Shown here: piece after piece, positions 27,417 through 63,640 of the stretch
Layout: the number at the start of each line of letters is the position of its first letter
Numbering within the stretch: position 1 is the stretch's first letter
Assembly (NCBI RefSeq): GCF_041248615.1
Contig: NZ_CP158425.1
Origin: Escherichia coli
GTDB lineage: Bacteria > Pseudomonadota > Gammaproteobacteria > Enterobacterales > Enterobacteriaceae
DNA: 64,000 nt
Direction: 5' to 3' (one strand)
The notes under the pieces: model-generated
What the model saw: the letters and a program-made list of their open reading frames with translations, nothing else
The model's database searches: none
What the model was told of the DNA's origin: nothing
Translations under genes and position numbers: made by a program

Positions 27417-27429
27417 AAAAGTTACTTTT
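27417..27429. repeat. AAAAGT-N-ACTTTT motif instance (AAAAGTTACTTTT)
   Basis: Perfect; overlaps dsbC-like stop codon, 14 bp upstream of next gene start. Confidence 0.6.
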
Positions 27430-28171
27430 GCGCAGCGCCCATTTGGGTCACCAGGTTTTCCGGGCTCAGCCACCCCGTAAATAACTGCGGTTTGCCGCTT
27501 AGTGTCACCATGGTAGGAGTACCTTGCAGCGGGATTGTTGAGGCCACCTGGAAATGCGATTTGATAATGTTTAAGCAAGCCTCATCAGGACGTCCTTCCG
27601 GGATAGTTGAAACCGGATTCATCGCTGCATCCAGAGCTTCGTTTGGCTTTGCTGAACACCAGATTTTGGCCATGTTCCCGGCTACTACCGAGTTCAGTCC
27701 TGCACGTGGGAATGCAAGAAACTTAATCGAAATACCGGCATCAAGATAAGACTTCAGATCATGATGCAGTTTTTGGCAGTATCCACAGGTTATATCGGTA
27801 AAGATAGCAAGCCGGTATTTTTCGTTTGGTGATTTGTAGTCGATGGATTTTGTTTTGGATGCGAATTCCCGGACGCCCATTAAAATGGCCTGCTCAGTGG
27901 TGTTTACCACATCTTTACCTTTCACGTGGAATAAGCTTCCGGTAAAAATGTAATCTCCGTCTTTGCTCACGTAACTTACCCCCTCCCTGGAAATCACCGT
28001 AAAAATATCTTTTACTGGCGAGGGTTCGACGTGCTCGATTGAAAGCCCAATGGCTTTGAGCTTATCCCGGGCTGCATCTGGCAGTACCATTGTATTAACC
28101 GGCTCGGCATTCATCGTGAAGGCGGTACTTAATGAAAGAAGTAATACCGATGCCTTAATAATTTTTTTCAT
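27422..28171 (-). CDS. dsbC: DsbC-like disulfide isomerase
   Basis: 249 aa; signal peptide; FTDITCGYCQKLH active site and overall similarity to DsbC. Confidence 0.85.
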   Translation of the reverse strand: MKKIIKASVLLLSLSTAFTMNAEPVNTMVLPDAARDKLKAIGLSIEHVEPSPVKDIFTVISREGVSYVSKDGDYIFTGSLFHVKGKDVVNTTEQAILMGVREFASKTKSIDYKSPNEKYRLAIFTDITCGYCQKLHHDLKSYLDAGISIKFLAFPRAGLNSVVAGNMAKIWCSAKPNEALDAAMNPVSTIPEGRPDEACLNIIKSHFQVASTIPLQGTPTMVTLSGKPQLFTGWLSPENLVTQMGAAQK

Positions 28172-28318
28172 TTATGCTCCTTGAATCGAGCACTAATATT
28201 ATCACGCCCAAAAATTCCAGAATTTTGCTTAAACGCTTAAATCAACGGGTAAAGCCGAAAGAAAGTCGATAGATATATGGGAGAATAGATAAAACGTAGA
28301 TTCAGTGGAGAAATCGTT

Positions 28319-28858
28319 GTGTTTACACCACCAGCAGATGATGTGAAACCTATTCCCGTTCCTGATGAGATTTACACTCAGTGCATTACGGATGCCGCCC
28401 GCTTCTTCGGAATTGATGCCGAACTGGTTTTTACGTTGTTTGACAATGAAGGCGGTAAGGTTGGTACTTTCAGCAGGAATACTAACGGCACTTATGATAT
28501 TGGCCCGATGCAGATCAACTCATCCAATCTGCCTGAAATAAAAAAGCATTTCCCGACTGTAACGTGGCGGGTTCTGGCTTACGATGCTTGCGCTAGTTTC
28601 TGGGTTGGAACATGGTGGCTCTACAGAAAAATTGTTGATCGCAAGGGCAATGTGTTTGAAGGGATTGCAGATTACAACAGCAAAACCCCAAAGGTACGTG
28701 CAAAGTACATATTTAACTTCATGGTAAAGTACAATCGCCGGATCCAGCAGCGTAACGGGATGGGTGAGCTTTATCAATGGACCCAACAACCTCCTCGATA
28801 CAATGGCCATATAGCTAAAAATGTCCCGGAGCAAAACCCGACTCCTGTTGTTAAATAA
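28319..28858 (+). CDS. lytic transglycosylase (transfer-associated, Slt domain)
   Basis: NEGG...GPMQIN motifs typical of plasmid X/Orf169/P19-type lytic transglycosylases. Confidence 0.7.
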   Translation: MFTPPADDVKPIPVPDEIYTQCITDAARFFGIDAELVFTLFDNEGGKVGTFSRNTNGTYDIGPMQINSSNLPEIKKHFPTVTWRVLAYDACASFWVGTWWLYRKIVDRKGNVFEGIADYNSKTPKVRAKYIFNFMVKYNRRIQQRNGMGELYQWTQQPPRYNGHIAKNVPEQNPTPVVK

Positions 28859-28940
28859 ATTCAACCTGATATTACAGAAGATCATCGAGTAGCTTGGGTA
28901 CCCCCCCGCAAAAAATTCGCATAGACTCAGGGGTAATAAA

Positions 28941-29507
28941 TTGTCTTTTTCTGCAAGAAATATATTTAAGATTCTCTCTTCTTTCTTGATGCAGAAAAGC
29001 CCTCTTCATGAAGAAGTATGTGTTCCTGAAGAAACAACAGCTGGTTTATGGGGCCCTCTCCCTGATTCGCATGTCGTGCTTTTCTTAGATTTCGATGGGG
29101 TTTGTCACAGGTGCAAAAATGAAACCTTTGAGCGAATGCCATTGGTGGAAAAATTACTGGATAAATGCCCTTCCATGGTGATTGTCATCTCCAGTTCGTG
29201 GCGTGAATGTGCCAGTATAACTTACCTGAAATCTCTTTTCCGGCTACCTTATAGAGACAAAGTCATAGGTGCTACCGATTCGGTATATTTAAAACCTAAT
29301 CAGTCAGGTGTGCGGGCTGCTGAGTGTGAGGACTTTGTATTTTCACATCGAGTTAAAGCATTTATCTGCCTTGATGACGACGAATCATTATTCCCGGTCG
29401 GTTATCCACATTTGCAAAAAACCAATTATTACACCGGCCTCACCGAATCTGATCTTGCAGCTCTTAACACCAGGTATCATCTGCTTATGAAACGTTGGGC
29501 TTCCTGA
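28941..29507 (+). CDS. HAD-superfamily-like hydrolase (tentative)
   Basis: FLDFDGV (DxDG) motif I, SSS motif II and CLDDDE motif IV-like. Confidence 0.4.
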   Translation: MSFSARNIFKILSSFLMQKSPLHEEVCVPEETTAGLWGPLPDSHVVLFLDFDGVCHRCKNETFERMPLVEKLLDKCPSMVIVISSSWRECASITYLKSLFRLPYRDKVIGATDSVYLKPNQSGVRAAECEDFVFSHRVKAFICLDDDESLFPVGYPHLQKTNYYTGLTESDLAALNTRYHLLMKRWAS

Positions 29508-29509
29508 AT

Positions 29510-29522
29510 TAAAGTAACTTTT
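29510..29522. repeat. AAAAGT-N-ACTTTT motif instance (TAAAGTAACTTTT)
   Basis: 12/13; between convergent HAD-like and HNH genes. Confidence 0.5.
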
Positions 29523-29614
29523 ACGGAGAGCATGCCCGCATTATCAGTTCTATGCTTCTCCATTTCTGCCCCGGGTCAAAGCATTGCACAGTTGGAAGAA
29601 AACATGCCGGTCTC

Positions 29615-35046: not shown

Positions 35047-36462
35047 TCAGTTACGTGTGCCACGAATACTTTCAGTGAAAGCCTTCCGTTGCAGGCGACG
35101 GTTATCCCAGGTTGAAATGACGTCCGAGCTGGTACCGACCTGGCTGTGCGATAGCTCATAGGCGGCTTTAACCTGTTTTGAGAGATTGTCTGTTAATCGG
35201 TTGAGATCATCCCTTTTACCCGACAGCGACTCACTCGGTATGCTCATGGTTGAAATTTTGGCCTCAACCTGGCGCAACATGTTGATTACGAGGCTCGTCG
35301 CAGCAATAGTGCTTATGTCCTGAATGTATGCGTACCCTTCCGGTGCTTCGAATGTTTGCAAAGAGTCGATAATGGTCGGGATGCCGATATAGGAGATAAT
35401 GCGTAATTCATCATCTGAAACACGAACGTCGTTGATGATTTTTTTCTGTACGTTTAAAAGAAGATCAGAAATGGTATCCTTCAATCCCTTAAAACCACCG
35501 TCATTAACTTCTGACATGACAAGGCACTGAGCCTTTCGTGGGGATGATGGATCTGGTGCCGGAGAACACTTGAGCATTTTAATTGATCCGCCAGCTGGTG
35601 GCCCCATGATGTAATCCGTGACAGTCATGGTAGACGGGCGGACTTCCATTCCCGCTTTTTCGCCTTTGCTATCCCAGTTGATAATGACAGTACCCACGAG
35701 AGACATAAGTTGTTCTGCCAATTTATAACCGGATAACTCCGTTACCCCTCCGATGTTCATTGTTCCCTTATCAATATCCATGAACGACATATAGAAGAGG
35801 TTACCACTGAATTTTTCAGCGAACTCTTCGGGATCCTTTGCTTTAACCTGAGAAGTGACAGCTTCAGGTGACTTTGTCATCGATGAGCCAAAATCAGGAA
35901 TGAGACCATTAATCGATCCCAGAATTGAGGCTGGTCCAGAGCTAACTGAGTTAGCGAACTGGCTTGGCGTACCCACGTTTTCAGAAAGGAAAGAGTAAGT
36001 TGCATTGCATGAATCTTTCGCAAATTTATTTAGCGCTTGCAGTTTGTTTTGGATGTCATTAATCGTTGCAGCACAGTCAGCACAAATAGCTGAAACAGCA
36101 ACGTTAAAAGCATAGATAGCCGCACCCTGGGCAATACCACGGGCCACCTGCACAAGCTGGTCCCCGTTGATCATGCTGAAGGACCCAAGAAAAACGTCAA
36201 TACCATTACAACCGACAGAAGCTTTTGGAAACGACATGGAAACAAGGTTGGTATTAACGTTTGTTGTTCGGTAAGACATTGACCCGCCAACTATGCCTGT
36301 ACGGGTTGCTGTGGAAAAGGTGGCCGGGCTGGTAGACGTCATCATGCCATTGAAAATGTTACGCATTGCGTTGTCTGCATTTGCAGTCGGGGCTAAAATT
36401 GCAGCACAAACAGAAAGAGACAAAAGTAACTTTTTGAAGTTGAAAACGGCATTACTGCGCAT
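35047..36462 (-). CDS. traH: F-type conjugative pilus assembly protein TraH/TrhH
   Basis: Signal peptide MRSNAVFNFKKLLLSLSVCAAILA; TraH-like sequence; ATG at 36462 has GGAGG upstream. Confidence 0.85.
   Translation of the reverse strand: MRSNAVFNFKKLLLSLSVCAAILAPTANADNAMRNIFNGMMTSTSPATFSTATRTGIVGGSMSYRTTNVNTNLVSMSFPKASVGCNGIDVFLGSFSMINGDQLVQVARGIAQGAAIYAFNVAVSAICADCAATINDIQNKLQALNKFAKDSCNATYSFLSENVGTPSQFANSVSSGPASILGSINGLIPDFGSSMTKSPEAVTSQVKAKDPEEFAEKFSGNLFYMSFMDIDKGTMNIGGVTELSGYKLAEQLMSLVGTVIINWDSKGEKAGMEVRPSTMTVTDYIMGPPAGGSIKMLKCSPAPDPSSPRKAQCLVMSEVNDGGFKGLKDTISDLLLNVQKKIINDVRVSDDELRIISYIGIPTIIDSLQTFEAPEGYAYIQDISTIAATSLVINMLRQVEAKISTMSIPSESLSGKRDDLNRLTDNLSKQVKAAYELSHSQVGTSSDVISTWDNRRLQRKAFTESIRGTRN
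36422..36434. repeat. AAAAGT-N-ACTTTT motif instance (AAAAGTAACTTTT)
   Basis: Perfect; inside the traF/traH overlap (traH signal-peptide codons). Confidence 0.5.
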
Positions 36463-38091: not shown

Positions 38092-38604
38092 TTAATCTAA
38101 TTCTTCTTGAGAATACCTCTCTATGGCTGAAGCAGTTGAAGATAATCTGCAACGTGGACAATAAGCATCATTTGTCACTGGCACAATGTATGGGCGTTTA
38201 CATTTTTCGCAGGCACCTAGTTCTTCAATTTCTTTCATAGAAGTAAGGATTTCTATTATTTTATTAACTTCCGGTGCGCATACAAAGTATCCCAGATTAT
38301 GAAGGACACTCATTATTCGGTTGAAGTCAATTTGCCGAAAACTCGCTTCCGGATTTATTGGATCAAAACCAAAATAGTTAACTGCGACATCAATAACAGC
38401 AGAAAAAGCTCGGCGGTTATCTGTGCGTTTGCTCCAGCCCCGGATACCTTTTTTGAGTTTTGTTTTTGCACCAGGCTCAAAATCGATATTTTCAGCAACA
38501 TGATTACCGTACAAAATTCGTATTGTATTTTTATTTGCCCCAAGCGACATAGTCCTTGCTGCTCGCAATAGAGCATTAGCTTTTGTTTGATCGACCTTTG
38601 CCAT
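38092..38604 (-). CDS. hypothetical protein with C-terminal zinc ribbon (possible transfer regulator)
   Basis: 170 aa; CEKC...CPRC motif; position equals trhR/trhY-like genes next to oriT in IncHI Tra1 (assignment not verified). Confidence 0.5.
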   Translation of the reverse strand: MAKVDQTKANALLRAARTMSLGANKNTIRILYGNHVAENIDFEPGAKTKLKKGIRGWSKRTDNRRAFSAVIDVAVNYFGFDPINPEASFRQIDFNRIMSVLHNLGYFVCAPEVNKIIEILTSMKEIEELGACEKCKRPYIVPVTNDAYCPRCRLSSTASAIERYSQEELD

Positions 38605-38605: not shown

Positions 38606-39406
38606 TTAATAATCCTTTAACATAACTTTATTTGTTAAAGTGTTGAACACATCCTGACGGTGACTGGTGAACATAGTGTCATAACGTAATAGTTCCATCA
38701 AATCATCACTAACTTTTCCTAACCGGATGTCAGCAGACAATTCATAAGCCCAGGCAAAAACTTTCGTTTTAAGTGAAACACTCTCTTCAATATGCCCTTG
38801 TGAGAAAGCAATTGTACGTGGGAAAAGAACGACATCGTTAATTGTTTTTAACGATGAATAACCAATGTCTTTAATAGCATCAGCTGTAGTTGGTTTTAAA
38901 CCAAAGAAAACACTTACAAACTCTGGTGCGAGCATTGAGATAAAGAACACCTGCATAAAGTAGTCATTCTGTATATCAACACATTTAGAACGCAACTCAT
39001 GAATCTTCTTGGGATTATAGATATCCACTGTACCATTCAGAAAAGTCACTTTTTCACCGGCATCGTAAATACCATAGTCAATATCATTTGTATCATATTC
39101 ACGAATTACATTGGAATCACCGTCCAAGACCGCAGAAAAAAACCTCTCCCATGTAATTTCCTTTCCGAGTGTACGCGGAACCAAAAAACTACCTGGACGT
39201 GTTTCCACTTCAAAAGCTAAATCAGCGGCTGTACTAAATCCTTTCCCAAATAGGCGACGCTGGAGAAGAGGAGTCCCAGTTTGATATGCAGAAGATCCAT
39301 GCACAGGCAATAACATTAAAAATGCACGGTAACTACGAATAAGCGAAATCTCAGTGCGGAAAAGTTTACCGAGTAAGCTACGAGTTAAATTATCAGATTC
39401 TGACAT
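38606..39406 (-). CDS. hypothetical protein (266 aa)
   Basis: ORF separated by 1 nt from the following gene; no motif recognised. Confidence 0.5.
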   Translation of the reverse strand: MSESDNLTRSLLGKLFRTEISLIRSYRAFLMLLPVHGSSAYQTGTPLLQRRLFGKGFSTAADLAFEVETRPGSFLVPRTLGKEITWERFFSAVLDGDSNVIREYDTNDIDYGIYDAGEKVTFLNGTVDIYNPKKIHELRSKCVDIQNDYFMQVFFISMLAPEFVSVFFGLKPTTADAIKDIGYSSLKTINDVVLFPRTIAFSQGHIEESVSLKTKVFAWAYELSADIRLGKVSDDLMELLRYDTMFTSHRQDVFNTLTNKVMLKDY

Positions 39407-39481: not shown

Positions 39482-39494
39482 AAAAGTAACTTTT
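39482..39494. repeat. AAAAGT-N-ACTTTT motif instance (AAAAGTAACTTTT)
   Basis: Perfect; oriT-candidate intergenic region. Confidence 0.6.
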
Positions 39495-39733
39495 AGTATT
39501 TTCTTAAGGCTTGAATAAGCCTTAAATCTATCCCTTCAACCACACCGCTTACTTGTAACACTTTTTAACCAAACTGACCAGAATTTTATCAAAATTTCTT
39601 CGCATGCTAACGAAATGTGAAGCGATTAAAAAAAAACCTAAATCCAGCCCCTCCCAACGTTGGATTAGAATAACGACGTCTTTCACTGACCGTCATAAAC
39701 TGACATTTTTACTTTTCATCAACCTCATGCTTA

Positions 39734-39898
39734 CATAGGATCACTAAACAAAGAAAAGTGACCCTATGAATGCCTCACATAGGGTCACTTATGTTTGAAA
39801 AGTGACCCTATGTAATGTCGTCATAGGGTCACTTTTTATAAAAGTGTCACTATGGACAAAGTTCCATAGGGTCATTTTTTTTGGAAAAGTGGCACTAG
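39734..39898. repeat. array of about 43-bp-periodic imperfect palindromes (AAAAGTGACCCTATG-N9-CATAGGGTCACTTTT); candidate oriT/operator region
   Basis: Three full palindromes at 39754-39790, 39797-39837, 39841-39880 plus half-sites at 39734-39745 and 39883-39898, in the 760-bp divergent intergenic region before the relaxase operon. Confidence 0.5.
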
Positions 39899-39966
39899 AT
39901 ATATGTATAACTTTAATAGAGCAATGCACATTATCAAAAGCAATAATCCACAATGGTCATTCCCTC

Positions 39967-39979
39967 AAAAGTAACTTTA
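39967..39979. repeat. AAAAGT-N-ACTTTT motif instance (AAAAGTAACTTTA)
   Basis: 12/13; oriT-candidate intergenic region, other side of the palindrome array. Confidence 0.55.
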
Positions 39980-40164: not shown

Positions 40165-40650
40165 ATGAGTAATTCGAATCTTATAAGTTCTATAGAGCTA
40201 ACACGTAAAAATTTACGTGCTCAGATTGAAGGTTTGCGTGTTGAGGCTGAAGATCTCATTACAAAATACTGGATCAAGTGGAAGGAACGAAACCACCAAG
40301 AGATTAACCTTACCCGACATAGCAAAGTTCCAAAGAGGGAGTATCTGGGTTCTTACGCACCAAAAGTTGAGCTAATTGGTAATGCCAGAAAAGTAACGAT
40401 CACTTGGCATCAGTTCAGCCCTTATAAAACAAGAGCGCCTAGTCACATGTCAAAACGGGTGCAACCAATGAAAAGTGGAAAATATTCTAAGAACTGTTTT
40501 GTAAACCATGCCAGCTGGGAATACGAAATGATTTCTGAAACGGAAGCATTGCTGGAGCCTTACAGAGAAATGCTTGAGCTCTATCATTCAGCATATATCG
40601 AACTTGGACGAAAAATCCGTCAATACTCAAAAACTAAGGTGGCACAATGA
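40165..40650 (+). CDS. hypothetical protein, first gene of relaxase operon (possible relaxosome accessory)
   Basis: ATG at 40165 with AGGAGG 6 nt upstream; ORF-track start 40111 less likely. Confidence 0.5.
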   Translation: MSNSNLISSIELTRKNLRAQIEGLRVEAEDLITKYWIKWKERNHQEINLTRHSKVPKREYLGSYAPKVELIGNARKVTITWHQFSPYKTRAPSHMSKRVQPMKSGKYSKNCFVNHASWEYEMISETEALLEPYREMLELYHSAYIELGRKIRQYSKTKVAQ

Positions 40651-41387: not shown

Positions 41388-44300
41388 ATGATGATGAATT
41401 TCAGGGCGCTGTATTTATGTATTAAACGGATTTTGGGGATATTCTCATCTCAGGAGAATGATGCAACCTCTGTAATGATTGAGGATATATCAAGCCTCTC
41501 TCCTTTTGCGCAGATTCTAGGAGATCAGAAGTACACTGTTCCTGATCATCCAAATCCAGAAGTCCTGAAATTCATCGAGTATCCAACTCGTCCGACGGGC
41601 ATACAGACATTTAATGAACAGTCAATCCTGTCTCTGTATCGGGAAAAGCTGCACTCAATTTCAATGATGTTAGCTATCAGCGATAGCGACATCAGGGACG
41701 ATGCATATACATTTACTAATTTAGTATTAAAGCCCTTGGTTGAATATGTTCGCTGGATACATCTTTTGCCAGCTTCCGAAAATCATCATCATAATGGTAT
41801 TGGTGGGTTACTTTCTCACAGCCTGGAAGTGGCCATACTCTCTTTAAAAAATGCGCATCACTCAGAACTGAGACCAATCGGATATCAAGATGAAGAAGTA
41901 GTCCGTAGAAAAGTATATCTCTATGCTGCGTTTATCTGTGGTTTAGTCCATGATGCCGGAAAGGTTTACGATCTCGATATTGTAAGCCTGAATTTAGCTA
42001 GTCCGATCATTTGGACGCCAAGCTCACAAAGTCTTCTTGACTGGGCACGTGAAAATGACGTGGTTGAATACGAAATCCACTGGCGAAAGCGTATTCATAA
42101 TCAACATAATATCTGGTCCAGCGTTTTCCTTGAGCGAATCCTAAACCCGGTATGTCTTGCATTTTTGGATCGGGTAAATAAAGAACGTGTTTATTCAAAA
42201 ATGATCACCGCCCTAAACGTTTATACTGATGGGAATGACTTTTTGTCTAAATGCGTGAGGACCGCTGATTTCTATTCTACTGGTACAGACCTTAATGTTT
42301 TACGTGACCCTATCATGGGTCTGCGTTCTAATGATGCAGCAGCAAGGGCCATTAGTACCATCAAGCACAACTTTACCAGTATCAATATCAACAATTACAA
42401 TGCTAAGCCTATGCACATCATTATCGTAAATGGTGAGGTATACCTTAACGAGAACGCATTCCTTGATTTTGTTCTCAATGATTTCGAATTACATAAATAT
42501 AACTTCCCTCAGGGAGAGGCTGGTAAGACGGTATTGGTAGAATCCCTAGTTCAACGTGGTTACGTCGAGCCCTATGATGATGAGCGTGTCGTTCACTACT
42601 TCATTCCGGGTATCTATTCGGAAAACGAAATATCAAACATCTTTAGAAATGGGATAGGGAAACTAGAATTCTATAACCTTCTTAAGCTAAGGTGGATTGG
42701 TTTAATCTTTGATTCCTATAAAATCCCTGACTCAGTGCCGGGTCTTTTTAGCGTTAATGCCAATAAAGACTTTATTTACATTGACGAGCAAAAAACAGTT
42801 ACTGAATACAGAAGACCAGTGCCCGGTCGGGACGCTATAACTAAAATTACTGATACTGTTGAGACGGCTGTTCTTAAGGTTAATGATTTAGGCCGCTCCA
42901 CTGCCTCTATTGATGTTGATATACATTCTAAGAAAAATGAAGGCTCATCCGACGATTTTGAGAAGAAAGCCGAAAGTGATAATGAAATTGATAATGACAC
43001 GCAGATAGTTAAATCTGAGGGTGAGGAAGCAGCTGATCCTGTCATTCCTGATATAGAAGAAAGTGAAGATGAATCGGCAAAGGACACGGAATCCCATGTC
43101 CTGGTCAACCAACTTCATGAACTCCTTTTAAGCGCTCCACTTTCCAATGACTATATAGTGTGTGTAGATGCTGTCCCCTACCTCAACATAGATGCCACTA
43201 TGGCATTGCTGCCGGGATTAGATGAAAAAGCATTTAGTGAAGAGCCCTATTTCCAACTGACATTCAGAGAAGGCTCTCTCGATGGAATGTGGATAGTAAG
43301 GGACATTGACGATCTGCGTTTAGTCCAGCTCGGCGATAACTGCGCCGGGTTCCAGCTCACCTATCATGAGCCAAGAAGGCCAACAACTTTAAAGTCACTT
43401 TTCAATACTTCTATGTATCAGGCATTAGTGATTAATGATGAGTCTTCTGTTGAAAACTCTGCCCCACGTCCAAAGCAAACGCTTGAGCTGCCTCCCCCAC
43501 GTGTAAATGCACTCGAAGAACATTCTGGCGACGTGGAATATCATGGAACCGATAGTGCATCCGCGACTGGTCCGCTGAAAACTGAGGCTGTGGAATATGA
43601 ACATTATCAACATCTTTTTGAGGAAGAAGATGAAGAGCATGAGATCATTGATTATACCGATTTCACACAGCTTAGTGTTTCTCGGCCAGAAGTCGGTAGT
43701 TGTGCAACAAGCTCTTCGGTCCATAATGAAAAGCTTCTCCCCGAGCCGTCAGAATTACCAGAACTTAACCGAGAACAGAACGCTGATCCCCAGGGTACGA
43801 TTGAACGCTCTATGGATGTTTCTGTAGGACAAGAAAACTCAGAACCAGATACTGAGGGTAACTGCCCACCACCAGCTGAAGTTGTGTATTCCCAGACCGA
43901 AGCAGCCGCAACCAGTGTGATGGCAAGTGAAGAGCCCGCCTTACCTCCTGTACTTGAAGAATCAAATGGAGAGCATGCGCCCACAGACGCTAAGGGGCAT
44001 CATCTTTCGCCAGCACTGGCCAGACTGTTCGCCCCAACAGCACCGGTAGAAAAACAAAATCCCAAGCGCAACCGGAATAAATCATCGGACAAAGCAGAAG
44101 TACAAAAACCAGCATCACCTGTTTCTGGTCACAATCTGAACAGTAAAGTCTTTGCAACTACTGAATCAGACCAAAATGGTGAATTCTCGCTTATAAGCGA
44201 AGGTGACGTTACAGAGCTTGAATTTGTAGAAATTGCGTCAGTACTGCATCAAATTCTGTCCAAAATGGAGGTGGCGTTTAAAAGAAAGCGCAAAAACAGA

Positions 44301-44540: not shown

Positions 44541-46624
44541 TGTCAGATTCGAAGAGGACTAACCTCCATGCACAAGAGAATTTTTATCGGCCTATTCTTG
44601 AGTATCGTAGTGCCTCAATACTTTTGATTTGTTCGGTTTCTATGCTTTATATGGGACTTTCTTCAGACGGACTGGACATCGCCCCAATAGTTCTGTTCAC
44701 CTCAATATTGCTTTTTTTGCTGTGCCTTTATCGTTGCAAAACAGCAGCGCCATTCTTGATGGCTCATTGGCGTGTATTCAAGCGACATTTCATGTTCGTT
44801 AGTCTTGATTCACTGCGTGTAATTAACAAAAGTAACTTTTTCTCCAATGAGCGAAAGTATCGTCAACTGGTTCAGGATTATCAAAATAAAAATAAGGATA
44901 TACCCGAGCGAAAGTCCTATTTTTGTGATGGGTTTGAGTGGGGCCCGGAACATGCGGATCGGGCATATCAAATAGCTAACCTCTCCAGTGATAAACGTGA
45001 GATCGAGTTGCCATTCGTCTTCAACCCAATTAAGAGACATTTTGACGCAATGGCTCGTAAGATGGGCGGCAGCAATGCAATTTTTGCTGTGGAACGTAGG
45101 GAACCCATATTTGTAACTGAAGACAATTGGTTTGGTCATACTCTGATAACCGGAAACGTGGGTACCGGGAAAACGGTGCTACAGCGTTTACTAAGCATTA
45201 GCATGCTTCATCTTGGTCATGTTGTTGTTGTCATAGATCCAAAGAACGATGCAGAGTGGCGAGAATCTCTAATGGAAGAGGCTAAGACCCTCGGTCTTCC
45301 TTTCTATAAATTTCATCCTGGCCAGCCAGCATCTTCGGTCTGTATTGATGTCTGCAACACCTATACTAATGTTTCTGACCTAACATCTCGTCTTTTGAGC
45401 TTGGTGACAGTTCCCGGTGAGGTTAACCCATTCGTTCAGTATGCCAAGGCTCTCGTTTCCAATGTGATTTCCGGGCTTTCTTACATAGAGAAAAAGCCTT
45501 CTATTTATCTGATTCACAAGAACATGAAAAGCCACATGTCTATTGTGAATCTTACAGTCAAGGTAATGGAGTCATGTTACGCGAGATATTATGGTTACGA
45601 TGTCTGGACCGAAAAAGTTAAGTACGTCGCTAACGAAACCTTGCCGGTACGTTTCAAGCGTCTCGCTGAATGGTTTACGGCTCATTTCATGAATTACGAG
45701 GGGTCCGAACAAATAGACTGGTTAGATACTGTTTCCCAGCTTATTGATTACTCAATGTCCGACCCAGAGCATATGGCTAAAATGACCGCAGGTATTATGC
45801 CTGTTTTCGATATGCTCATTGAAAAACCTTTAAATGAGCTTTTATCTCCTAACCCGAACTCAGTATCATCAAGAGAAATTGTAACAAGCGAAGGGATGTT
45901 CAGCACTGGCGGGGTGCTATACATTTCGCTTGATGGCCTTTCAAACCCCGATACAGCAGCTGCTATTTCTCAATTAATAATGTCAGATCTGACCTCCTGT
46001 GCCGGTAGTCGCTACAACGCTCAGGATGGTGATATGTCAGCTAATTCCAGGATAAGTATTTTTGTTGATGAGGCACACTCAGCCATTAACAACCCTATGA
46101 TTAACCTTCTGGCGCAGGGTCGTGCAGCGAAAATTGCACTGTTTATTTGCACCCAAACCATCTCCGACTTTATTGCTGCGGCAAGTGTTGAAACTGCCAA
46201 TCGAATTACGGGGCTCTGCAACAATTATATAAGCTTGCGAGTCAACGATACTCCTACTCAGACGCTTGTTGTAGAGAACTTTGGTAAGAGTGCGATAAGC
46301 ACAAATATGGTCACTTATACGACCGGTTCAGAAACATCTTTGCCGCATAATAACTTCTCAGGTTCAATCTCAGAAAGAAAGCAGACAACTTTAGAAGAGA
46401 GTATTCCAAAGGATCTCTTGGGTCAGGTCCCTATGTTTCACATAGTTGCCAGGCTTCAAGATGGCAGGAAGGTTGTAGGCCAAATCCCTATTGCTGTTGC
46501 TGAGAAACAAATGAAGCCAAACACAACTCTGTCGGAAATGCTTTTCAAGAAGGCCGGAAAAGTTACTTTGCGTCAAAATCTCGATATCAAAAATCTTAAT
46601 AAATTTCTAAGGAAGTTGCATTGA
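44540..46624 (+). CDS. type IV coupling protein (TraG/TraD/VirD4 family)
   Basis: 694 aa; N-terminal TM segments; Walker A GNVGTGKT; start overlaps traI stop. Confidence 0.85.
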   Translation: MSDSKRTNLHAQENFYRPILEYRSASILLICSVSMLYMGLSSDGLDIAPIVLFTSILLFLLCLYRCKTAAPFLMAHWRVFKRHFMFVSLDSLRVINKSNFFSNERKYRQLVQDYQNKNKDIPERKSYFCDGFEWGPEHADRAYQIANLSSDKREIELPFVFNPIKRHFDAMARKMGGSNAIFAVERREPIFVTEDNWFGHTLITGNVGTGKTVLQRLLSISMLHLGHVVVVIDPKNDAEWRESLMEEAKTLGLPFYKFHPGQPASSVCIDVCNTYTNVSDLTSRLLSLVTVPGEVNPFVQYAKALVSNVISGLSYIEKKPSIYLIHKNMKSHMSIVNLTVKVMESCYARYYGYDVWTEKVKYVANETLPVRFKRLAEWFTAHFMNYEGSEQIDWLDTVSQLIDYSMSDPEHMAKMTAGIMPVFDMLIEKPLNELLSPNPNSVSSREIVTSEGMFSTGGVLYISLDGLSNPDTAAAISQLIMSDLTSCAGSRYNAQDGDMSANSRISIFVDEAHSAINNPMINLLAQGRAAKIALFICTQTISDFIAAASVETANRITGLCNNYISLRVNDTPTQTLVVENFGKSAISTNMVTYTTGSETSLPHNNFSGSISERKQTTLEESIPKDLLGQVPMFHIVARLQDGRKVVGQIPIAVAEKQMKPNTTLSEMLFKKAGKVTLRQNLDIKNLNKFLRKLH
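44828..44840. repeat. AAAAGT-N-ACTTTT motif instance (AAAAGTAACTTTT)
   Basis: Perfect; inside coupling-protein gene about 290 bp from its start. Confidence 0.5.
46558..46570. repeat. AAAAGT-N-ACTTTT motif instance (AAAAGTTACTTTG)
   Basis: 12/13; near 3' end of coupling-protein gene. Confidence 0.45.
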
Positions 46625-51451: not shown

Positions 51452-51464
51452 GTGAGTCAGAAAG
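51452..51464. repeat. AAAAGT-N-ACTTTT motif instance (GAAAGTTACTTTT, followed by CCG)
   Basis: 12/13; intergenic, 155 bp upstream of 51297 gene start. Confidence 0.55.
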
Positions 51465-51653
51465 TTACTTTTCCGTAATAGTTAATTTCAGATCCTTCTT
51501 CCAGTTACGCTTCAGTATAAAACCGATACCCTCTAATTCAGCATCCTTCACGTTTAATACGCTTCACTTTAAGGCAGGGCTTTTCGGTTGATATGAATTC
51601 TTTTTCCGGTTGCTGGACATGGGTTTCATCCTGATAGTTAAAATTGCAGGCTA

Positions 51654-55234: not shown

Positions 55235-56419
55235 TCATGACTGTCCCTTGTTCATCTTATCAGCATGCTTACGCAGGTACTCTTTCAGGTCAGCATGAGC
55301 GTTGATGATATCGTTCATTTCATCATTGGTCAGAACAAGCGTGTAAGTATCAGTACTGACAGATTCACCTTCTTTAAGCTTGGCTTCTTCAGCAATACGT
55401 TCAAAAATCGGGATCGCGGTGTCTGCAATGACGGTCACAGTCTTTTTGTTCAGAACGCTGGACATGGAAGGTGCTTTACCTGCCGGGTTCTGTTTAGGAG
55501 CGCTGTCCTTTGGAGCTGGAGCCGGTTCCTGTACCGGTGGCGTATCCAGCGTCTCCGTATTGCTTTCATCGTTCAGTTGATCCGGTACCGGGGTGTTATC
55601 GGTAGTATCATCTGCCGGTTGCTCAGCACCGATGTTTTCCGGAGTCTGCGGATCTGCCATGCGCTCTTCTACCTTGGCAGCTTTGACGAATTTCAGCGTG
55701 TTTTTCGTCGCCTTGCCATAGATGGAGATCGCTTTGTTGATGTTATCTACCGCATCCTCACCGCTGTACATATACTCGTCCAGTGCAACGTACATGCTCA
55801 CCTGATCGCTCACAAGCATGGTCTGTAGTTCAGAAGGCAGGTCCAGTACGCGAACCATCTGGCGAAGATGCTGCTCTGATTTACCACGTTTTTTTGCCAG
55901 TTCCGCAAAGGTCTTAGGCTCTTCTTTATCTTCAACCAGACGCTTAATTGAAAGCGCTTCAGCTACGACAGACAGCGCCAGGTTGGAGTTGCCGGTCAGG
56001 GTGAAGAGTTCTGCTTTTGAAGCGCTACCGCGAAACTCTTCGCAGCGAATACGAGTAATGCGTTCACGCCCTTCTGCTTCCAGCTGGCGGTTTGCAATAG
56101 CGATGGAACGGATACGGCAAGCCCCCTGACGCAGTACAGGTACGCCATTAACCATCTGAACAACGATAGGCGTCACGCTGAACGGGTCTTCCATGTAGGC
56201 ATCGGCCAGGCTGTTCAGGTGTTCCACAACGTGAGGCATTGAATAGTAGAGCTCGCCCATACCGGCCGTGCGGGTGTTAAAGCCTTCCTGCTCTACAACA
56301 ACCGAAGGGTCAATGATAAGGCCGTTGCCTTTACGGGCACCGTTACCAGTGCGTTCCAGGTAACCACGAAGGCTGATTTCGTTGCTGTTGTTTTTTACTT
56401 CAGTTTCGATTGCGGACAT
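55235..56419 (-). CDS. ParB/Srx-domain protein (ParB-like, orphan)
   Basis: N-terminal IIDPSVV..NTR and GACRIRS (GxxRxR[AS]) ParB-box-like motifs; acidic linker; no parA partner adjacent. Confidence 0.55.
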   Translation of the reverse strand: MSAIETEVKNNSNEISLRGYLERTGNGARKGNGLIIDPSVVVEQEGFNTRTAGMGELYYSMPHVVEHLNSLADAYMEDPFSVTPIVVQMVNGVPVLRQGACRIRSIAIANRQLEAEGRERITRIRCEEFRGSASKAELFTLTGNSNLALSVVAEALSIKRLVEDKEEPKTFAELAKKRGKSEQHLRQMVRVLDLPSELQTMLVSDQVSMYVALDEYMYSGEDAVDNINKAISIYGKATKNTLKFVKAAKVEERMADPQTPENIGAEQPADDTTDNTPVPDQLNDESNTETLDTPPVQEPAPAPKDSAPKQNPAGKAPSMSSVLNKKTVTVIADTAIPIFERIAEEAKLKEGESVSTDTYTLVLTNDEMNDIINAHADLKEYLRKHADKMNKGQS

Positions 56420-56508: not shown

Positions 56509-56521
56509 AAAAGTAACTTTT
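56509..56521. repeat. AAAAGT-N-ACTTTT motif instance (AAAAGTAACTTTT)
   Basis: Perfect; 90 bp upstream of ParB-like gene start. Confidence 0.6.
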
Positions 56522-56634: not shown

Positions 56635-56647
56635 AAAAGTTACTTTT
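56635..56647. repeat. AAAAGT-N-ACTTTT motif instance (AAAAGTTACTTTT, followed by CCGG)
   Basis: Perfect; 216 bp upstream of ParB-like gene start. Confidence 0.6.
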
Positions 56648-60232: not shown

Positions 60233-60241
60233 CTTTGTCAG

Positions 60242-60400
60242 CTACTTACCGGATTCGTAGGCCAGGATAGCAAATACCTCCCTTGTTCCGTCTTTCATCC
60301 GCAACTCGCAAAGCGAGTTTCGTGTGAGCCAGGTGAATATCAACAGCGTTAAACAAACTATTAATATGCACAAAACAATGGGTTGGTTCGGCATTTTCAT
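60242..60400 (-). CDS. hok: Hok/Gef-family membrane toxin (type I toxin-antitoxin)
   Basis: 52 aa [52 protein letters not shown] closely resembles Hok; in-frame upstream extension is mok-like. Confidence 0.85.
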
Positions 60401-61575: not shown

Positions 61576-61857
61576 TTACTCTTTTTCCTGCATAGCGGCT
61601 TTTTCAGCCCGGGTGGCCAGGCGAGCATTTCCGAAAGGTTCACGGACAAGCAGGGGCTTCTCCTTCTTCCAGCCCCTGATAGCCGTTTCTCCAAAACGAC
61701 GTGGTGCATTGCCGTTCCAGCGAGCAATCACATGATTATCATGAATTTCTATAATGACAACGGGGTGGACAATGACCGTTGTAATGGTGGTATTTCCCAT
61801 TTTGGTACGGGTTACAGACCAAACCTGCATCCCGGATTCCAGCTGGCTGATTTTCAT
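61576..61857 (-). CDS. hypothetical protein (93 aa)
   Basis: ORF only. Confidence 0.35.
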   Translation of the reverse strand: MKISQLESGMQVWSVTRTKMGNTTITTVIVHPVVIIEIHDNHVIARWNGNAPRRFGETAIRGWKKEKPLLVREPFGNARLATRAEKAAMQEKE

Positions 61858-62231
61858 ATTATATCCTTAAGCCAACACGAACTGCGCCACAAAAATTAAT
61901 GTGGCGCAATTTACCATAAACAATAAACATCAGATACCCGTGAAGAGATTTCCCTTTATTTTAAAATTCTTCTGGAGAAAAAATGATATTTCCAGAAGAA
62001 GTCAGCGAAATTCAGAAACGGCCATCACAATGGTGCTGCGCTGACGCTGGCGTTCTGCCTTGCGCTGCCTGCGGCGATAGATCTATTTTGCGCTGACGTA
62101 AGGGCAGTCCTCACGGGTATACCAGCAGCAGCCGCAAGGTTCGGGCCGGGGTTTTCCGGCAAGTCCAAATGGTTTCATCAAGTCACCTTTTTAATATTTT
62201 TAATGGCAAGATACTTCCCTAACACATTGTT

Positions 62232-62543
62232 TTATCGCATATAACGCTGTTGCATAAACAGATACAGATAACCCTCAGGAGAAAACATGCAAAGGTTATC
62301 AGTGATAACCGCATCCAGATACCGAGTGTCAGTCTGTAAACGTTTTATCACCAGAAAATGTGCTGCCGCAGCCTTAATGCCAGAACTACCGTTTACAACA
62401 TTATGTATACCCGCTTCGAATAACGAACGAGCATGAATTACCTTTTCCCGGGCCGCTTCGATCTCCGCATTAATAACGCATTGCCGCGCCTGGATGACTG
62501 CCTCTCCGGTTAAATCGCGGAAATTCATTAGAGATGTGATCAT
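62232..62543 (-). CDS. hypothetical protein (103 aa)
   Basis: ORF only. Confidence 0.35.
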   Translation of the reverse strand: MITSLMNFRDLTGEAVIQARQCVINAEIEAAREKVIHARSLFEAGIHNVVNGSSGIKAAAAHFLVIKRLQTDTRYLDAVITDNLCMFSPEGYLYLFMQQRYMR

Positions 62544-62765
62544 GATTAACTCTCCAGATTATGTGGAATCATTATAACAACTGGCATCCCGCCACAAATA
62601 ACCTGAGAAAAATTCTTTGAAATATTCCTATATATAAGGAATTACAGTCGGAAAAGAAACGATGAAATAGCGCCGACCGCTTAAAATCGATAAATTAAAA
62701 TGGACGGCACTGGAATGAAAAACTGAAAGTAGTAAGACCGTAATTATCCTTCACGGATGTAAGCT

Positions 62766-62966
62766 TTATAAGAGGAGTACTGGCAAAGCTTTGCCAAGTA
62801 CTTCGGCGGTTGTGTCTACGATTTTACGGATGTCATCGATCTGCGAAGGCTTATTCAACACCACCGTAAAAAGCTCTCCTTCGTTATCAGCCTGCTCGCA
62901 GTTTCCGTATCGGCTCCCGTCGTACAGCTGCACAATACGTGACATAGAAGACTTTGTTTGTTTCAT
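62766..62966 (-). CDS. hypothetical small protein (66 aa)
   Basis: ORF only. Confidence 0.3.
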   Translation of the reverse strand: MKQTKSSMSRIVQLYDGSRYGNCEQADNEGELFTVVLNKPSQIDDIRKIVDTTAEVLGKALPVLLL

Positions 62967-63005
62967 GGCTTTGCACCTGCTTTTAGGCAGTTTGGTTACT
63001 GGTTA

Positions 63006-63230
63006 TCAGAAGCTGGTTTCATGCGCTTCCGGCTGGGACACGAACTGGTATTTGACGCCGCCAGGCACACCTACTGCTTCGGCAATAGAGTCGCAAAGCC
63101 GCGATAAATCATTTAGTGTCATCGGATATTCAATATCTACAGAATATAAAGCACCTGCATTTTCAGCATCTTCGATGTTTTTATACTGGGCACTAAATAT
63201 AGCAATGGTCTGAATTTCGTGGTTATGCAT
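63006..63230 (-). CDS. hypothetical small protein (74 aa)
   Basis: ORF only. Confidence 0.3.
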   Translation of the reverse strand: MHNHEIQTIAIFSAQYKNIEDAENAGALYSVDIEYPMTLNDLSRLCDSIAEAVGVPGGVKYQFVSQPEAHETSF

Positions 63231-63284
63231 GAACCGGTCCTTATTAAATTATAAAAGCCACCCGAGAGTGGCCTGAGTTGAAAC

Positions 63285-63488
63285 TTAAATCTGTGAAGTA
63301 TTTTTGAGAGATTTTTTGCGATCCAGATGCCGGGCAACAATGGTTCCGATAACAAGTAGCATGATGACCGCACTGAAGAAGGTGCTGTCAGGGACGCCCT
63401 GGAAAAAATCACTGAAACTGTAAACAATAAAAATCAATGCGCAAAAATAGAAAACGATACGAACATAAGGGGTAAAAAACATTTTCAT
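63285..63488 (-). CDS. small membrane protein (67 aa)
   Basis: Single TM helix. Confidence 0.35.
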   Translation of the reverse strand: MKMFFTPYVRIVFYFCALIFIVYSFSDFFQGVPDSTFFSAVIMLLVIGTIVARHLDRKKSLKNTSQI

Positions 63489-63627
63489 CGGTTGCCTTCC
63501 ATTCAGGGAGAATTCTCAGTAATTACATCACACCTGAAGAGAAACTATTTTCGTATAAATGAGCATTTTCGACATATCAGAGGGGGGGTTTACTCATAAA
63601 TGAGGTAGTAAGGGTCACACTTGAGGT

Positions 63628-63640
63628 GAAAGTTACTTTC
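63628..63640. repeat. AAAAGT-N-ACTTTT motif instance (GAAAGTTACTTTC)
   Basis: 11/13; intergenic, 140 bp upstream of 63488 gene start. Confidence 0.45.

Follow-up and report, generated by a model that had tools for sequence, protein, structure and literature searches.

Palindromic sites on an IncHI2 plasmid backbone

The window analysed here, a stretch of 64,000 nucleotides, corresponds to record 128001-192000 of the IncHI2 mcr-1 plasmid NZ_LT599829.1. It contains the oriT region with its repeat array, genes for TrhR, TrhY and MobI-family proteins, the gene of an orphan ParB-like protein (ParB-like-1) and, scattered among these, copies of the 13-bp palindrome AAAAGTNACTTTT (in probe form, AAAAGTAACTTTT; Table 1). 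Eight copies are perfect (26516, 27417, 36422, 39041, 39482, 44828, 56509 and 56635), against a dinucleotide-shuffle mean of 0.00, and 13 sites have at most one mismatch, against 0.24 in shuffles. Mismatches are almost confined to the outermost bases, and the real unit is therefore an 11-bp core, AAAGTNACTTT (AAAGT-N-ACTTT), all 15 window copies of which lie in 20001-64000 and none in 1-20000. Over the 201-kb plasmid backbone the core occurs 51 times against 0.6 expected (Markov-3), and 51 of the 53 AAGTNACTT 9-mers extend to it; no core site was found in the resistance island, in 37 kb of accessory DNA, in 100 kb of E. coli K-12 or in a 12.6-kb sample of an IncC plasmid. A or T is preferred at positions +-6, the centre is W in 84% and position -7 is G in 38-48% of sites. 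The motif is thus confirmed: it is non-random and occurs on the backbone only, and searching the literature for the sequence string found no description of it.

Table 1. Palindromic sites and candidate-binder genes in the window.
Feature	Position	Strand	Match or basis	Context	R27
Site GAAAGTAACTTTA	24952..24964		core intact, both outer bases mismatched	between convergent 3' ends of umuC and dsbA	
Site AAAAGTGACTTTT	26516..26528		perfect, G centre	intergenic, convergent gene on each side	
Site	27417..27429		perfect	overlaps stop codon of thioredoxin-fold gene (27422-28171, minus strand)	kept
Site TAAAGTAACTTTT	29510..29522		1 mismatch	intergenic, convergent HAD / HNH genes	
Site	36422..36434		perfect	trhF/trhH junction, ~34 nt into trhH	position kept
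TrhY homologue	38092..38604	-	synteny with R27	rival candidate binder	
TrhR homologue (tra-operon activator in R27)	38606..39406	-	synteny with R27 R0123	rival candidate binder	
Site AAAAGTCACTTTT	39041..39053		perfect	within trhR	kept
Site	39482..39494		perfect	82 bp upstream of trhR start; left flank of oriT array	kept
oriT-region array	39730..39900			6-7 alternating copies of 15-bp AAAAGTGACCCTATG / CATAGGGTCACTTTT, ~22 bp apart	
Site AAAAGTAACTTTA	39967..39979		1 mismatch	right flank of oriT array; 192 bp upstream of mobI/traH	
MobI-family protein (TraH in R27)	40165..40650	+	annotation	rival candidate binder	
Site TAAAGTCACTTTT	43390..43402		1 mismatch	within MobH relaxase gene	
Site	44828..44840		perfect	within coupling-protein gene (traD; traG in R27)	kept
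Site AAAAGTTACTTTG	46558..46570		1 mismatch	traD 3' end; next gene start 60 bp on	kept
Site GAAAGTTACTTTT	51460..51472		1 mismatch	intergenic; 169 bp upstream of minus-strand 94-aa gene	
ParB-like-1, 394-aa orphan, ParB/KorB/Noc superfamily	55235..56419	-		top candidate binder	
Site	56509..56521		perfect	96 bp upstream of ParB-like-1 start codon	kept
Site	56635..56647		perfect	222 bp upstream of ParB-like-1 start codon	
Site GAAAGTTACTTTC	63628..63640		core intact, both outer bases mismatched	intergenic; 146 bp upstream of minus-strand gene start	

The initial annotation had described this motif at 11 sites beginning at 27417. The motif itself stands, on stronger numbers than were given, but the count does not: only A/T centres had been taken, so that the G/C-centred sites at 26516, 39041 and 43390 were missed, together with 24952, and two of these (24952 and 26516) lie to the left of the proposed start. 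A chance expectation far below the observed number, absence from the resistance island and the pairs of sites before the ParB-like gene and around the oriT-candidate array were all borne out, and 'eight intergenic' was about right; an equal frequency in unrelated DNA, which would have told against the motif, was not seen. Of the proposed extension to ...ACTTTTCCG, a weak preference is left, the G at -7.

Placement of the sites relative to genes

Among the 13 window sites with at most one mismatch, seven are intergenic, one lies across a stop codon (27417, with the next minus-strand gene start 20 bp downstream) and five are intragenic, in trhH, trhR, mobH (traI) and traD (two). The intergenic share of all sites with at most one mismatch is 48%, and 37% of sites have no downstream start codon within 600 bp. 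Half of the sites fall within 300 bp upstream of starts, compared with 29% of random positions (p=0.003), but this enrichment is not significant against AT-rich 13-mers (39%, p=0.13). Good -10 elements, where they can be made out, follow the motif at a distance of ~130-160 bp, which leaves the promoter itself uncovered; sites precede the AC, R and H operons. The set is not one of classical operators; its closer likeness is to the dispersed sites of KorB (OB) or ParB (parS). The earlier idea of a 'global operator network' therefore holds for the plasmid-wide set and is, as stated, not supported for the operators, given the intergenic share and the distances from starts.

Conservation among IncHI-type plasmids

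R27 (IncHI1) carries 46 core sites. At the 20 of 20 IncHI2 sites alignable to R27, all 200 specified core bases are identical, compared with 64.7% of the +-15-nt flanks (Fisher p ~5e-32), while the central N varies; the positional conservation anticipated earlier is thus found, positions being kept in R27. Intragenic sites represent all three codon phases. The sites are under strong purifying selection for which the coding frame is irrelevant. An identical motif is present in plasmids related to pNDM-MAR and in those of Yersinia intermedia and Leclercia, where ParB-like-1 is only 35-50% identical, and the position of the 36422 site is also kept in the pNDM-MAR-like plasmid, with two copies there. 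Each IncHI-type resistance plasmid examined bears ~50 copies, in agreement with the earlier description of an IncHI-type backbone with a plasmid-wide set of putative protein-binding sites. Since the motif is unchanged while its surroundings have diverged, the palindrome almost certainly serves a plasmid protein as its docking site.

The oriT array

The first nine nucleotides (AAAAGTGAC) of the oriT repeat unit AAAAGTGACCCTATG match the AAAAGTNAC of the palindrome (N=G), a correspondence that is new here. The same array is present in R27, and the oriT of the pNDM-MAR-like plasmid retains AAAAGTNAC with a changed distal part. Single 9-mers are concentrated only at oriT, with three exact copies in 0.76 kb; the 14 found elsewhere in 201 kb equal the Markov expectation. 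The sites at 39482 and 39967 bracket oriT exactly 485 bp apart, a spacing identical in R27.

ParB-like-1 as the leading candidate binder

The palindrome is, on our tentative but preferred reading of the sequences, the site of a plasmid-encoded dimeric DNA-binding protein, most likely ParB-like-1, kept throughout the IncHI family. ParB-like-1 (WP_001272970.1 in IncHI2, WP_000108722.1 in R27) is by gene order the counterpart of R27 R0104, whose expression is high and constitutive (2196 / 2155 units at 25 / 37 C), and its gene heads a run of small genes of unknown function. It matches Pfam HTH_ParB (1.5e-5), and the profile of both ParB-like paralogue families matches the N-terminal and HTH domains of ParB/Spo0J/Noc structures. 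Its AF2 model (pLDDT 73.5), consisting of an N-terminal domain, an HTH, a disordered stretch of ~65 residues and a C-terminal domain, has RK2 KorB 8qa9 as best PDB match (E 1e-7, TMt 0.66), with Noc and ParB structures also matching, and as modelled shows the protein to belong to the ParB/KorB fold family. KorB has a similar layout. The phosphate motif is GACRIR in ParB-like-1 and GARRYR in KorB, which still hydrolyses CTP (PMC11790492); CTP use by ParB-like-1 may be expected but is uncertain because the first Arg of the motif is Cys. Across 12 diverged homologues the helix SEQH(L/I/V)R(Q/K) is almost unchanged; the ParB-like-2 paralogue varies there.

That ParB-like-1 would be the binder is suggested by this fold and by the proximity of sites to its gene. 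Sites precede the gene in every lineage: two perfect ones in IncHI2, one perfect and one near-perfect in R27, five perfect ones within 460 bp in the pNDM-MAR-like plasmid (a sixth lies beyond) and one perfect site ~110 bp upstream in Yersinia. Several points weigh against this assignment. The plasmid encodes three ParB-family proteins (ParB-like-1, ParB-like-2/R0042 and the Par1 ParB), inseparable by sequence alone; S-x-x-H in the recognition helix is a general ParB feature, and S-x-x-H-x-R is also retained in the IncC homologue, although no motif occurs in the IncC sample. The nine-nucleotide oriT match, moreover, speaks just as much for an oriT-binding factor, MobI/TraH for example.

Alternative binders

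The MobI-family protein is presumed to be the oriT adaptor for the MobH relaxase, and MobI of IncA/C plasmids is regarded as a multimeric protein that binds DNA and serves MobH relaxases as an adaptor (bioRxiv 10.1101/2025.04.21.649884). Were MobI/TraH or another reader of the oriT array the binder, the dispersed palindromes would be secondary regulatory sites through which it could control tra and backbone genes, in the manner of TraY/TraM. The nucleotides common to unit and palindrome in both IncHI2 and R27, the survival of AAAAGTNAC in the pNDM-MAR-like oriT, the concentration of single 9-mers and the constant spacing of the bracketing pair all fit such a factor. We nevertheless consider it unlikely: the densest site clusters precede ParB-like-1 and trhA, not mobI, ~50 dispersed sites would titrate a relaxosome factor, and MobI has no recognised DNA-binding domain, its only annotation being a PHROG of unknown function. 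The distal CCCTATG of the oriT unit is also missing from the dispersed sites, so that the array may be read by another protein, instead or as well. A dispersed centromere (parS) for partition or positioning, bound by ParB-like-2 (R27 R0042, annotated 'partition protein') or the Par1 ParB, appears similarly improbable. The IncC precedent speaks for it, as do the ParB-family membership of ParB-like-2, its very high expression in R27 (6132 and 2278 units) and a conserved variant, AAAAGGTACTTTT, 86-96 bp upstream of its gene in IncHI2, R27 and an IncHI1B-typed plasmid. That upstream site is, however, a mismatched variant, the recognition helix of ParB-like-2 differs between the IncHI1/2 and pNDM-MAR lineages while the motif is invariant, and neither orphan ParB-like gene adjoins a ParA gene. 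The Par1 parAB operon has no site and is preceded by a 249-bp x 12.6 tandem array, which is the likelier Par1 cis element.

TrhY and TrhR jointly act on the F, H, AC and Z operons (PMC7366339), and HtdA, which counteracts them, reportedly acts at the protein level. That the motif is the DNA target of these activators, controlling tra and most backbone genes, is decidedly unlikely, even though the AC, R and H operons are preceded by sites and trhR adjoins oriT with a site upstream. The F-operon promoter is the standard TrhR/TrhY/HtdA reporter, yet its gap contains no site in IncHI2 or R27, with a best PWM score of ~1 against 16-24 for the best sites of the site-bearing promoter regions scanned in these plasmids; sites are likewise missing upstream of htdA (AN operon) in both and at the Z promoter in R27. 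TrhR and TrhY therefore do not need the motif, and we rejected it as a TrhR/TrhY box on account of the F promoter. No DNA-binding domain is detectable in TrhR, TrhY or HtdA (the TrhR homologue has no Pfam or NCBIfam match, and TrhY only a faint Zn-binding Pfam match, E 0.24), and half of the sites are intragenic. Of the two candidates named by the initial annotation, the ParB-like protein is accordingly better supported, and the Zn-ribbon protein (TrhY) loses ground with the siteless F promoter. Binding by a chromosomal Enterobacterales factor whose sites the plasmid family accumulated would explain a motif constant in Escherichia, Salmonella, Klebsiella, Yersinia and Leclercia plasmids whose proteins fall to 28-35% identity, but is very improbable. 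Besides the lack of core sites in the 100 kb of K-12, a single enterobacterial contig came out of a pair scan across 100,044 species genomes; it has additional core sites and is probably an IncHI-like one. None of the E. coli regulators known to us has this consensus; in line with the earlier failure to recognise a host-factor site, the sequence-string literature search was empty.

Comparison with known systems

The OB of RK2 is TTTAGCSGCTAAA, and KorB has 12 sites on this plasmid. The IncHI set resembles KorB/OB (IncP-1) in its 13-bp palindrome with a single central base, in its dispersal over the backbone, with some sites near promoters and some far from any, and in a candidate binder of KorB/ParB fold that has KorB as best structural match, a comparable phosphate motif, a long disordered linker before the C-terminal domain and sites preceding its own gene. 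It differs in having ~50 sites, half of them intragenic, an unrelated palindrome sequence, no adjoining ParA/IncC partner or identified KorA-like co-repressor for the candidate, and a related half-module arrayed at oriT. The 13-bp OB palindromes serve KorB in long-range silencing, and the OB oligo is the G-centred form (PMC11790492).

ParB of IncC (IncA/C2) plasmids, which like the IncHI plasmids are large MOBH / MPF_F resistance plasmids, has 14 dispersed parS sites (core TTTCACATGTGAAA), four of which lie within ORFs and one at the promoter of the binder itself (PMC10954446). Palindromes are thus scattered over the backbone and several lie inside ORFs in both cases, but in IncC the sites are inverted repeats of 22 bp, recognised by the ParB from a complete parAB-053 operon, whereas the IncHI Par1 operon lacks the motif and has its separate 249-bp repeat array; the IncC sample, in turn, lacks the IncHI motif. 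Noc/NBS and chromosomal ParB/parS also combine ParB-superfamily HTH proteins with 14-16-bp palindromes in coding and non-coding DNA, but their role is chromosomal (nucleoid occlusion, segregation), and sequences, scale and context differ. The TrhR/TrhY-HtdA circuit is one of the same plasmid family and affects transcription plasmid-wide, with the motif at its targets AC and H and not at its reference target, the F promoter; to our knowledge, it has no known DNA site. In StbA/stbDR of R388 and TraM/TraY of F-like plasmids, oriT-proximal repeats are bound by regulators of transfer or of the balance between stability and conjugation. Unlike the ~50 dispersed IncHI sites, theirs cluster near oriT, and the protein families differ.

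A model for the palindrome network

If ParB-like-1 is the binder, it would repress its own gene via the 2-6 upstream sites and occupy the ~50 backbone sites before tra operons (AC, R, H) and many small-gene operons, as well as at gene junctions inside operons and in gene interiors. Binding at the palindrome would be expected to repress transcription, and ParB-like-1 could act at a distance, sliding or spreading like KorB and ParB, so that backbone expression would be coordinated or silenced and the plasmid possibly positioned. The oriT array, through the nine nucleotides of its units, would tie the network to conjugative DNA processing. The protein docked at the palindrome, probably KorB/ParB-like to judge from the sequences, would thereby coordinate the whole plasmid.

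Extent and delimitation of the palindrome

The initial annotation had listed 11 sites of a 13-bp palindrome, AAAAGT-N-ACTTTT with A or T at the centre, in the window. For whole-plasmid counts we used p14408_M1 (NZ_LT599829.1), an IncHI2 plasmid of 238,073 bp that carries mcr-1 and belongs to the MOBH and MPF_F classes; the window is an exact match to part of this record (see table). Eight exact copies of AAAAGTNACTTTT occur in the window and none of 100 dinucleotide shuffles contains any match; with at most one mismatch the count rises to 13, against a shuffle mean of 0.24. Mismatches are almost confined to the outermost bases, indicating that the real unit is the 11-mer AAAGTNACTTT (hereafter the core), with preferences for A at ±6, for A or T at the centre (84% of sites) and, weakly, for G at −7. 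Fifteen cores lie in window 20001-64000 and none in 1-20000, which bears out the reported absence of the motif from the resistance island. All 11 sites of the original list are correct, but three G/C-centred sites and one further core site had been missed, and two of the omitted sites lie to the left of the point at which the network had been said to begin.

Over the whole IncHI2 plasmid there are 24 perfect 13-mers, 46 sites with at most one mismatch and 51 cores; the corresponding numbers for R27, the IncHI1 reference plasmid (180 kb), are 26, 50 and 46. All IncHI2 sites fall within the 201-kb backbone, where a Markov-3 model expects 0.6 cores against the 51 seen, and 51 of the 53 AAGTNACTT 9-mers run on to a full core. 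No core occurs in the control sequences, which comprised accessory DNA (37 kb), E. coli K-12 (100 kb) and an IncC plasmid (12.6 kb). Over-representation thus holds against both dinucleotide shuffles and the Markov-3 model, and these controls together with the control DNA rule out chance or base composition as the explanation. A literature search, whose coverage stopped short of the 2014 TrhR/TrhY paper, returned no description of the motif.

Positions of the features discussed (L numbers denote individual sequence segments)
Feature	Position	Remarks
Window in p14408_M1	NZ_LT599829.1 128001-192000	exact match
Resistance island, end part	window 1-20000	
Backbone	window 20001-64000	umuDC, dsbA, Tra1, long run of small unknown genes
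Tra1		trhG, trhH, trhF, trhY, trhR, oriT, mobI/traH, mobH relaxase, traD coupling protein
trhF/trhH junction site, IncHI2	window 36422	
trhF/trhH junction sites, pNDM-MAR-like	L046 12419, 12436	17 bp apart
oriT array, IncHI2	window 39730-39900	trhR-mobI gap
oriT array, R27	L008 8417-8610	
oriT, pNDM-MAR-like	L046 8630-8812	
Palindromes bracketing the array, IncHI2	window 39482, 39967	
Palindromes bracketing the array, R27	108335, 108820	
mobI/traH	window 40165-40650(+)	putative oriT adaptor
ParB-like-1 gene	window 55235-56419(-)	394 aa
Sites upstream of ParB-like-1, IncHI2	96 and 222 bp upstream	two perfect
Sites upstream of ParB-like-1 counterpart, R27		matching pair
Sites upstream of ParB-like-1, pNDM-MAR-like	within 460 bp	five perfect, sixth further upstream
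Site upstream of ParB-like-1, Yersinia	~110 bp upstream	one perfect
hok-family toxin gene	window 60242-60361	flmA-like, R27 R0101
AAAAGGTACTTTT upstream of ParB-like-2, IncHI2	record 233411 (L005 41411)	
AAAAGGTACTTTT upstream of ParB-like-2, R27	45095	
AAAAGGTACTTTT upstream of ParB-like-2	L011 4741	
Tandem array upstream of Par1 parA, IncHI2	L002 12504-15594	outside the window
Direct repeats between trhA and repHI1A, R27	L006 38881-38979	three copies of 43 bp
AAAAAGTGAT and AAAGTGAGCAAGTCAC, IncC	L013 5880-5945	

Conservation across plasmid lineages

Positional conservation among related plasmids, which the initial annotation had made a test of the motif, is borne out by R27. For 20 IncHI2 core sites the surrounding segment can be aligned with R27 (188-418 bp, 66-81% identity), and at all 20 the ten specified core bases are identical (200/200), against 64.7% identity in the ±15-nt flanks and a central base that switches freely. 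The trhF/trhH junction is among the conserved positions, as are sites within traD, trhR, tus and trhI. Sites inside genes occupy all three codon phases, which rules out a protein-coding motif; that such sites are conserved nonetheless indicates that selection acts on the DNA itself. A dispersed repeat or mobile element of the REP, BIME or MITE kind is at odds with an information content of about zero past ±7 and with flanks that are 65% identical against 100% for the core. An RNA or DNA hairpin would have a 6-bp A/T-rich stem with a 1-nt loop and is not viable; a methyltransferase or restriction target is unlikely, such targets not being known to show over-representation together with positional conservation.

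The motif extends to lineages whose backbone proteins are only 28-50% identical to those of IncHI2. A pNDM-MAR-like Klebsiella plasmid has 12 perfect sites in 40 kb and a second such plasmid five sites upstream of trhA; the pNDM-MAR-like Tra1 region carries a single site in mobH and pairs of sites at oriT and at the trhF/trhH junction. The motif is also found on a Yersinia intermedia contig and on a Leclercia-type plasmid contig. The trhF/trhH junction site is kept in IncHI2, R27 and the pNDM-MAR-like lineage, which suggests a specific role inside the F operon. When 100,044 species genomes were scanned for pairs of perfect sites 20-50 bp apart, the result was a single enterobacterial contig, from Klebsiella grimontii and probably IncHI-like, and no new lineages. 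The same scan yielded about 20 unrelated contigs (Bacteroidota, Prevotella, Clostridia and others; L015-L039) with two perfect AAAAGTNACTTTT copies at this spacing; these pairs may be due to AT-rich composition or belong to an unrelated repeat family.

Placement relative to genes and promoters

Among the IncHI2 sites with at most one mismatch, 22 of 46 are intergenic, a 2.4-fold enrichment over a backbone that is 20% non-coding, although half of the sites are inside genes. The 300 bp upstream of a start codon hold 50% of the sites, compared with 29% of random positions (p=0.003) and 39% of AT-rich 13-mers (p=0.13), so that this excess is significant only in the first comparison. A further 37% are separated by more than 600 bp from any downstream start, and several intragenic sites fall at gene junctions inside operons. 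No consensus promoter overlapping the sites was found at oriT or at the gene for ParB-like-1, an orphan ParB-like protein discussed below. Where a good −10 element is visible, the motif lies about 130-160 bp upstream of it, and no fixed motif-to-promoter spacing was seen in the promoter regions examined. Such an arrangement is unlike a classical promoter-operator set, in which sites overlap or abut −35/−10 elements. Of the operator network originally proposed, the conserved, selected network of putative protein-binding sites stands; the element is better described as a dispersed site set in the style of KorB or ParB than as promoter operators. A comparable mixture of near, far and orphan sites is known from the KorB operators of RK2, and parS and Noc sites can be dispersed in a similar way.

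Site density is about one per 4 kb over the backbone, with small clusters only at ParB-like-1, trhA and oriT. This dispersal, without tandem clustering beside a rep or par gene, argues against iterons or a centromere array. Between trhA and repHI1A, R27 has three 43-bp direct repeats, each containing AAAAGGCACTTTT, a one-mismatch variant of the motif; these have the look of iterons in which a motif-like core is embedded. A Tus/Ter-like site was also considered, a Tus homologue being encoded on the plasmid; however, Ter sites are asymmetric, their consensus has only GTAAC in common with the motif, and some 50 fork traps are implausible.

Link to the oriT array

The gap between trhR and mobI contains six to seven alternating copies of a 15-bp unit (AAAAGTGACCCTATG / CATAGGGTCACTTTT) about 22 bp apart, and R27 carries the same array. 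The first nine nucleotides of the unit reproduce the AAAAGTNAC part of the palindrome, from which it appears that the dispersed network and the oriT array share a recognition module. The pNDM-MAR-like oriT retains AAAAGTNAC, the distal part of the unit being changed to (A/C)AATG, and single 9-mers outside oriT are not enriched (14 seen against 13.9 expected). On either side of the array stands a full palindrome, and the distance between the two is exactly 485 bp in IncHI2 as in R27 despite divergence of the intervening sequence; the constant spacing may reflect a looping or architectural constraint. Judging from these sequence matches, either one protein would read both the dispersed sites and the oriT array, or an oriT factor would be the true binder.

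Candidate binding proteins

That ParB-like-1 binds the palindrome is the best-supported hypothesis, which we hold tentatively and at slightly less than even chances. The protein has a ParB-type HTH (Pfam HTH_ParB at residues 149-209, E 1.5e-5; TIGR00180, 5.4e-7; PDB ParB matches), and a profile of the two ParB-like families of these plasmids aligns with ParB, Spo0J and Noc structures from the N-terminal domain through the HTH. Pfam makes no PF02195 call in ParB-like-1, and the GERRLRA motif (GxxRxxA) aligns with G(H/A)CRxR(A/S) in the ParB-like families. This nucleotide-binding motif, which belongs to the N-terminal ParB/Srx-like domain, retains its G, its second and third Arg and its Ala (which is Ser in the IncHI2 protein), with Cys in place of the first Arg; the phosphate motif is GACRIR in ParB-like-1 and GARRYR in RK2 KorB, which hydrolyses CTP (PMC11790492). 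In an AlphaFold2 model (pLDDT 73.5) the N-terminal domain and the HTH are followed by some 65 disordered residues and then a C-terminal domain; Foldseek ranks RK2 KorB first among PDB structures (8qa9; E 1.1e-7, TMt 0.66), with Noc and ParB next. In each lineage examined the densest site cluster is upstream of the ParB-like-1 gene, and these 2-6 sites are indirect evidence for specific binding. Among 12 homologues of 35-67% identity there is almost no variation in the helix SEQH(L/I/V)R(Q/K), whose S-x-x-H part is general to ParB proteins. The R27 orthologue by gene order, R0104, shows constitutive high expression (2196 and 2155 units).

No ParA gene was found near ParB-like-1, which heads a run of small unknown genes; the sole parA is that of the Par1 operon, 60 kb away on the circle and with its own ParB. 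A ParABS partition module for ParB-like-1 is accordingly not supported, no ParA ATPase gene being present in the same operon. Although S-x-x-H-x-R is preserved in the IncC homologue, the 12.6-kb IncC sample has no palindrome, whether upstream of the homologue's gene or elsewhere, a result that speaks neither for nor against ParB-like-1 as the binder. This homologue (pB557-NDM) has 312 aa, is 32% identical to ParB-like-1 and lies in the same gene run as a DNA methyltransferase; just upstream of it, AAAAAGTGAT and AAAGTGAGCAAGTCAC loosely resemble a AAAAGTGAC module. Further upstream of the ParB-like-1 gene than the region with the sites, at a distance of about 4 kb, lies a hok-family type I toxin gene, in an order conserved in R27.

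Besides a host factor, several plasmid proteins compete with ParB-like-1 as the binder. The shared oriT module would suit an oriT or relaxosome factor, for which MobI/TraH, the presumed adaptor for MobH relaxases (bioRxiv 10.1101/2025.04.21.649884), is the candidate. The paralogue ParB-like-2 (R27 R0042) is annotated as a partition protein, and few R27 genes are expressed as highly as that encoding it. At 86-96 bp upstream of this gene there is a conserved variant of the motif that is not palindromic, AAAAGGTACTTTT; the recognition helix of ParB-like-2 varies between lineages. The ParB of Par1 is a rival of the same kind, although its parAB operon is without a palindrome. Directly upstream of Par1 parA, a 249-bp unit is repeated 12.6 times in tandem over 3.1 kb; this array, with no ORF of at least 80 aa and no palindrome copy, may be the Par1 centromere or incompatibility element. 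With no site at parAB and this separate array in place, the palindrome is unlikely to be the Par1 centromere.

The transfer regulators TrhR and TrhY are the remaining rivals. According to one report, they jointly activate the F, H, AC and Z operons of R27, HtdA counteracts them, 139 of 181 expressed R27 genes show derepression in a mutant of htdA, and no DNA target is described there for the known IncHI regulators TrhR/TrhY, HtdA and H-NS (PMC7366339). TrhY is the protein that the initial annotation had called a Zn-ribbon protein and proposed for binding assays; no recognisable DNA-binding domain was found in TrhR, TrhY or HtdA. Copies of the motif precede the AC, R and H operons. In the gap of the F promoter, which serves as the standard reporter for TrhR/TrhY, there is no motif in either IncHI2 or R27 (best PWM score about 1, against 16-24 for the best sites in the site-bearing promoter regions scanned); the motif is likewise absent upstream of htdA in both plasmids and at the Z promoter of R27. 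The motif is therefore not a general TrhR/TrhY box, an explanation ruled out by the motif-free F promoter.

Comparison with known systems and implications

A conserved, selected, plasmid-wide site network on IncHI backbones is thus confirmed and extended. The closest known system is KorB of RK2 with its OB operators, which are likewise 13-bp palindromes dispersed over the backbone. KorB has 12 OB sites on RK2, and the IncHI plasmids have about four times as many; they differ also in the sequence of the site, in its connection to an oriT array, and in that the ParB homologue is an orphan for which no ParA or KorA partner was found. As a CTP-dependent clamp of the ParB family, KorB exerts silencing at a distance (PMC11790492). 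A second precedent is IncC ParB, whose parS sites are likewise dispersed, numbering 14, of which four are located in ORFs (PMC10954446).

By extension, an IncHI plasmid might have a KorB-like, possibly CTP-dependent sliding clamp, in which an orphan ParB homologue would load at about 50 sites, four times as many as on RK2, and whose recognition module would also occur in the oriT array. One protein would then couple plasmid-wide silencing, and perhaps positioning, to the start of conjugation, and its sites would take the place of the missing cis element through which R27 is globally derepressed upon htdA loss. We regard this full scheme as speculative and rather unlikely.

Plasmids of the IncHI1, IncHI2 and pNDM-MAR types carry mcr-1, NDM, ESBL and typhoid multidrug-resistance determinants. 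Their regulation is only partly understood, and most backbone genes respond to htdA loss without a known cis element; an invariant motif with about 50 sites and a named candidate binder provides a handle that makes IncHI global regulation directly testable. The motif might also serve as a sequence signature for IncHI-family backbones and, by analogy with the destabilisation of IncC plasmids by extra parS copies, in incompatibility- or titration-based plasmid curing. If the KorB analogy is true, long-range silencing by ParB-family clamps would not be confined to IncP-1 but would be shared by another plasmid family, one that is much larger and of medical importance.
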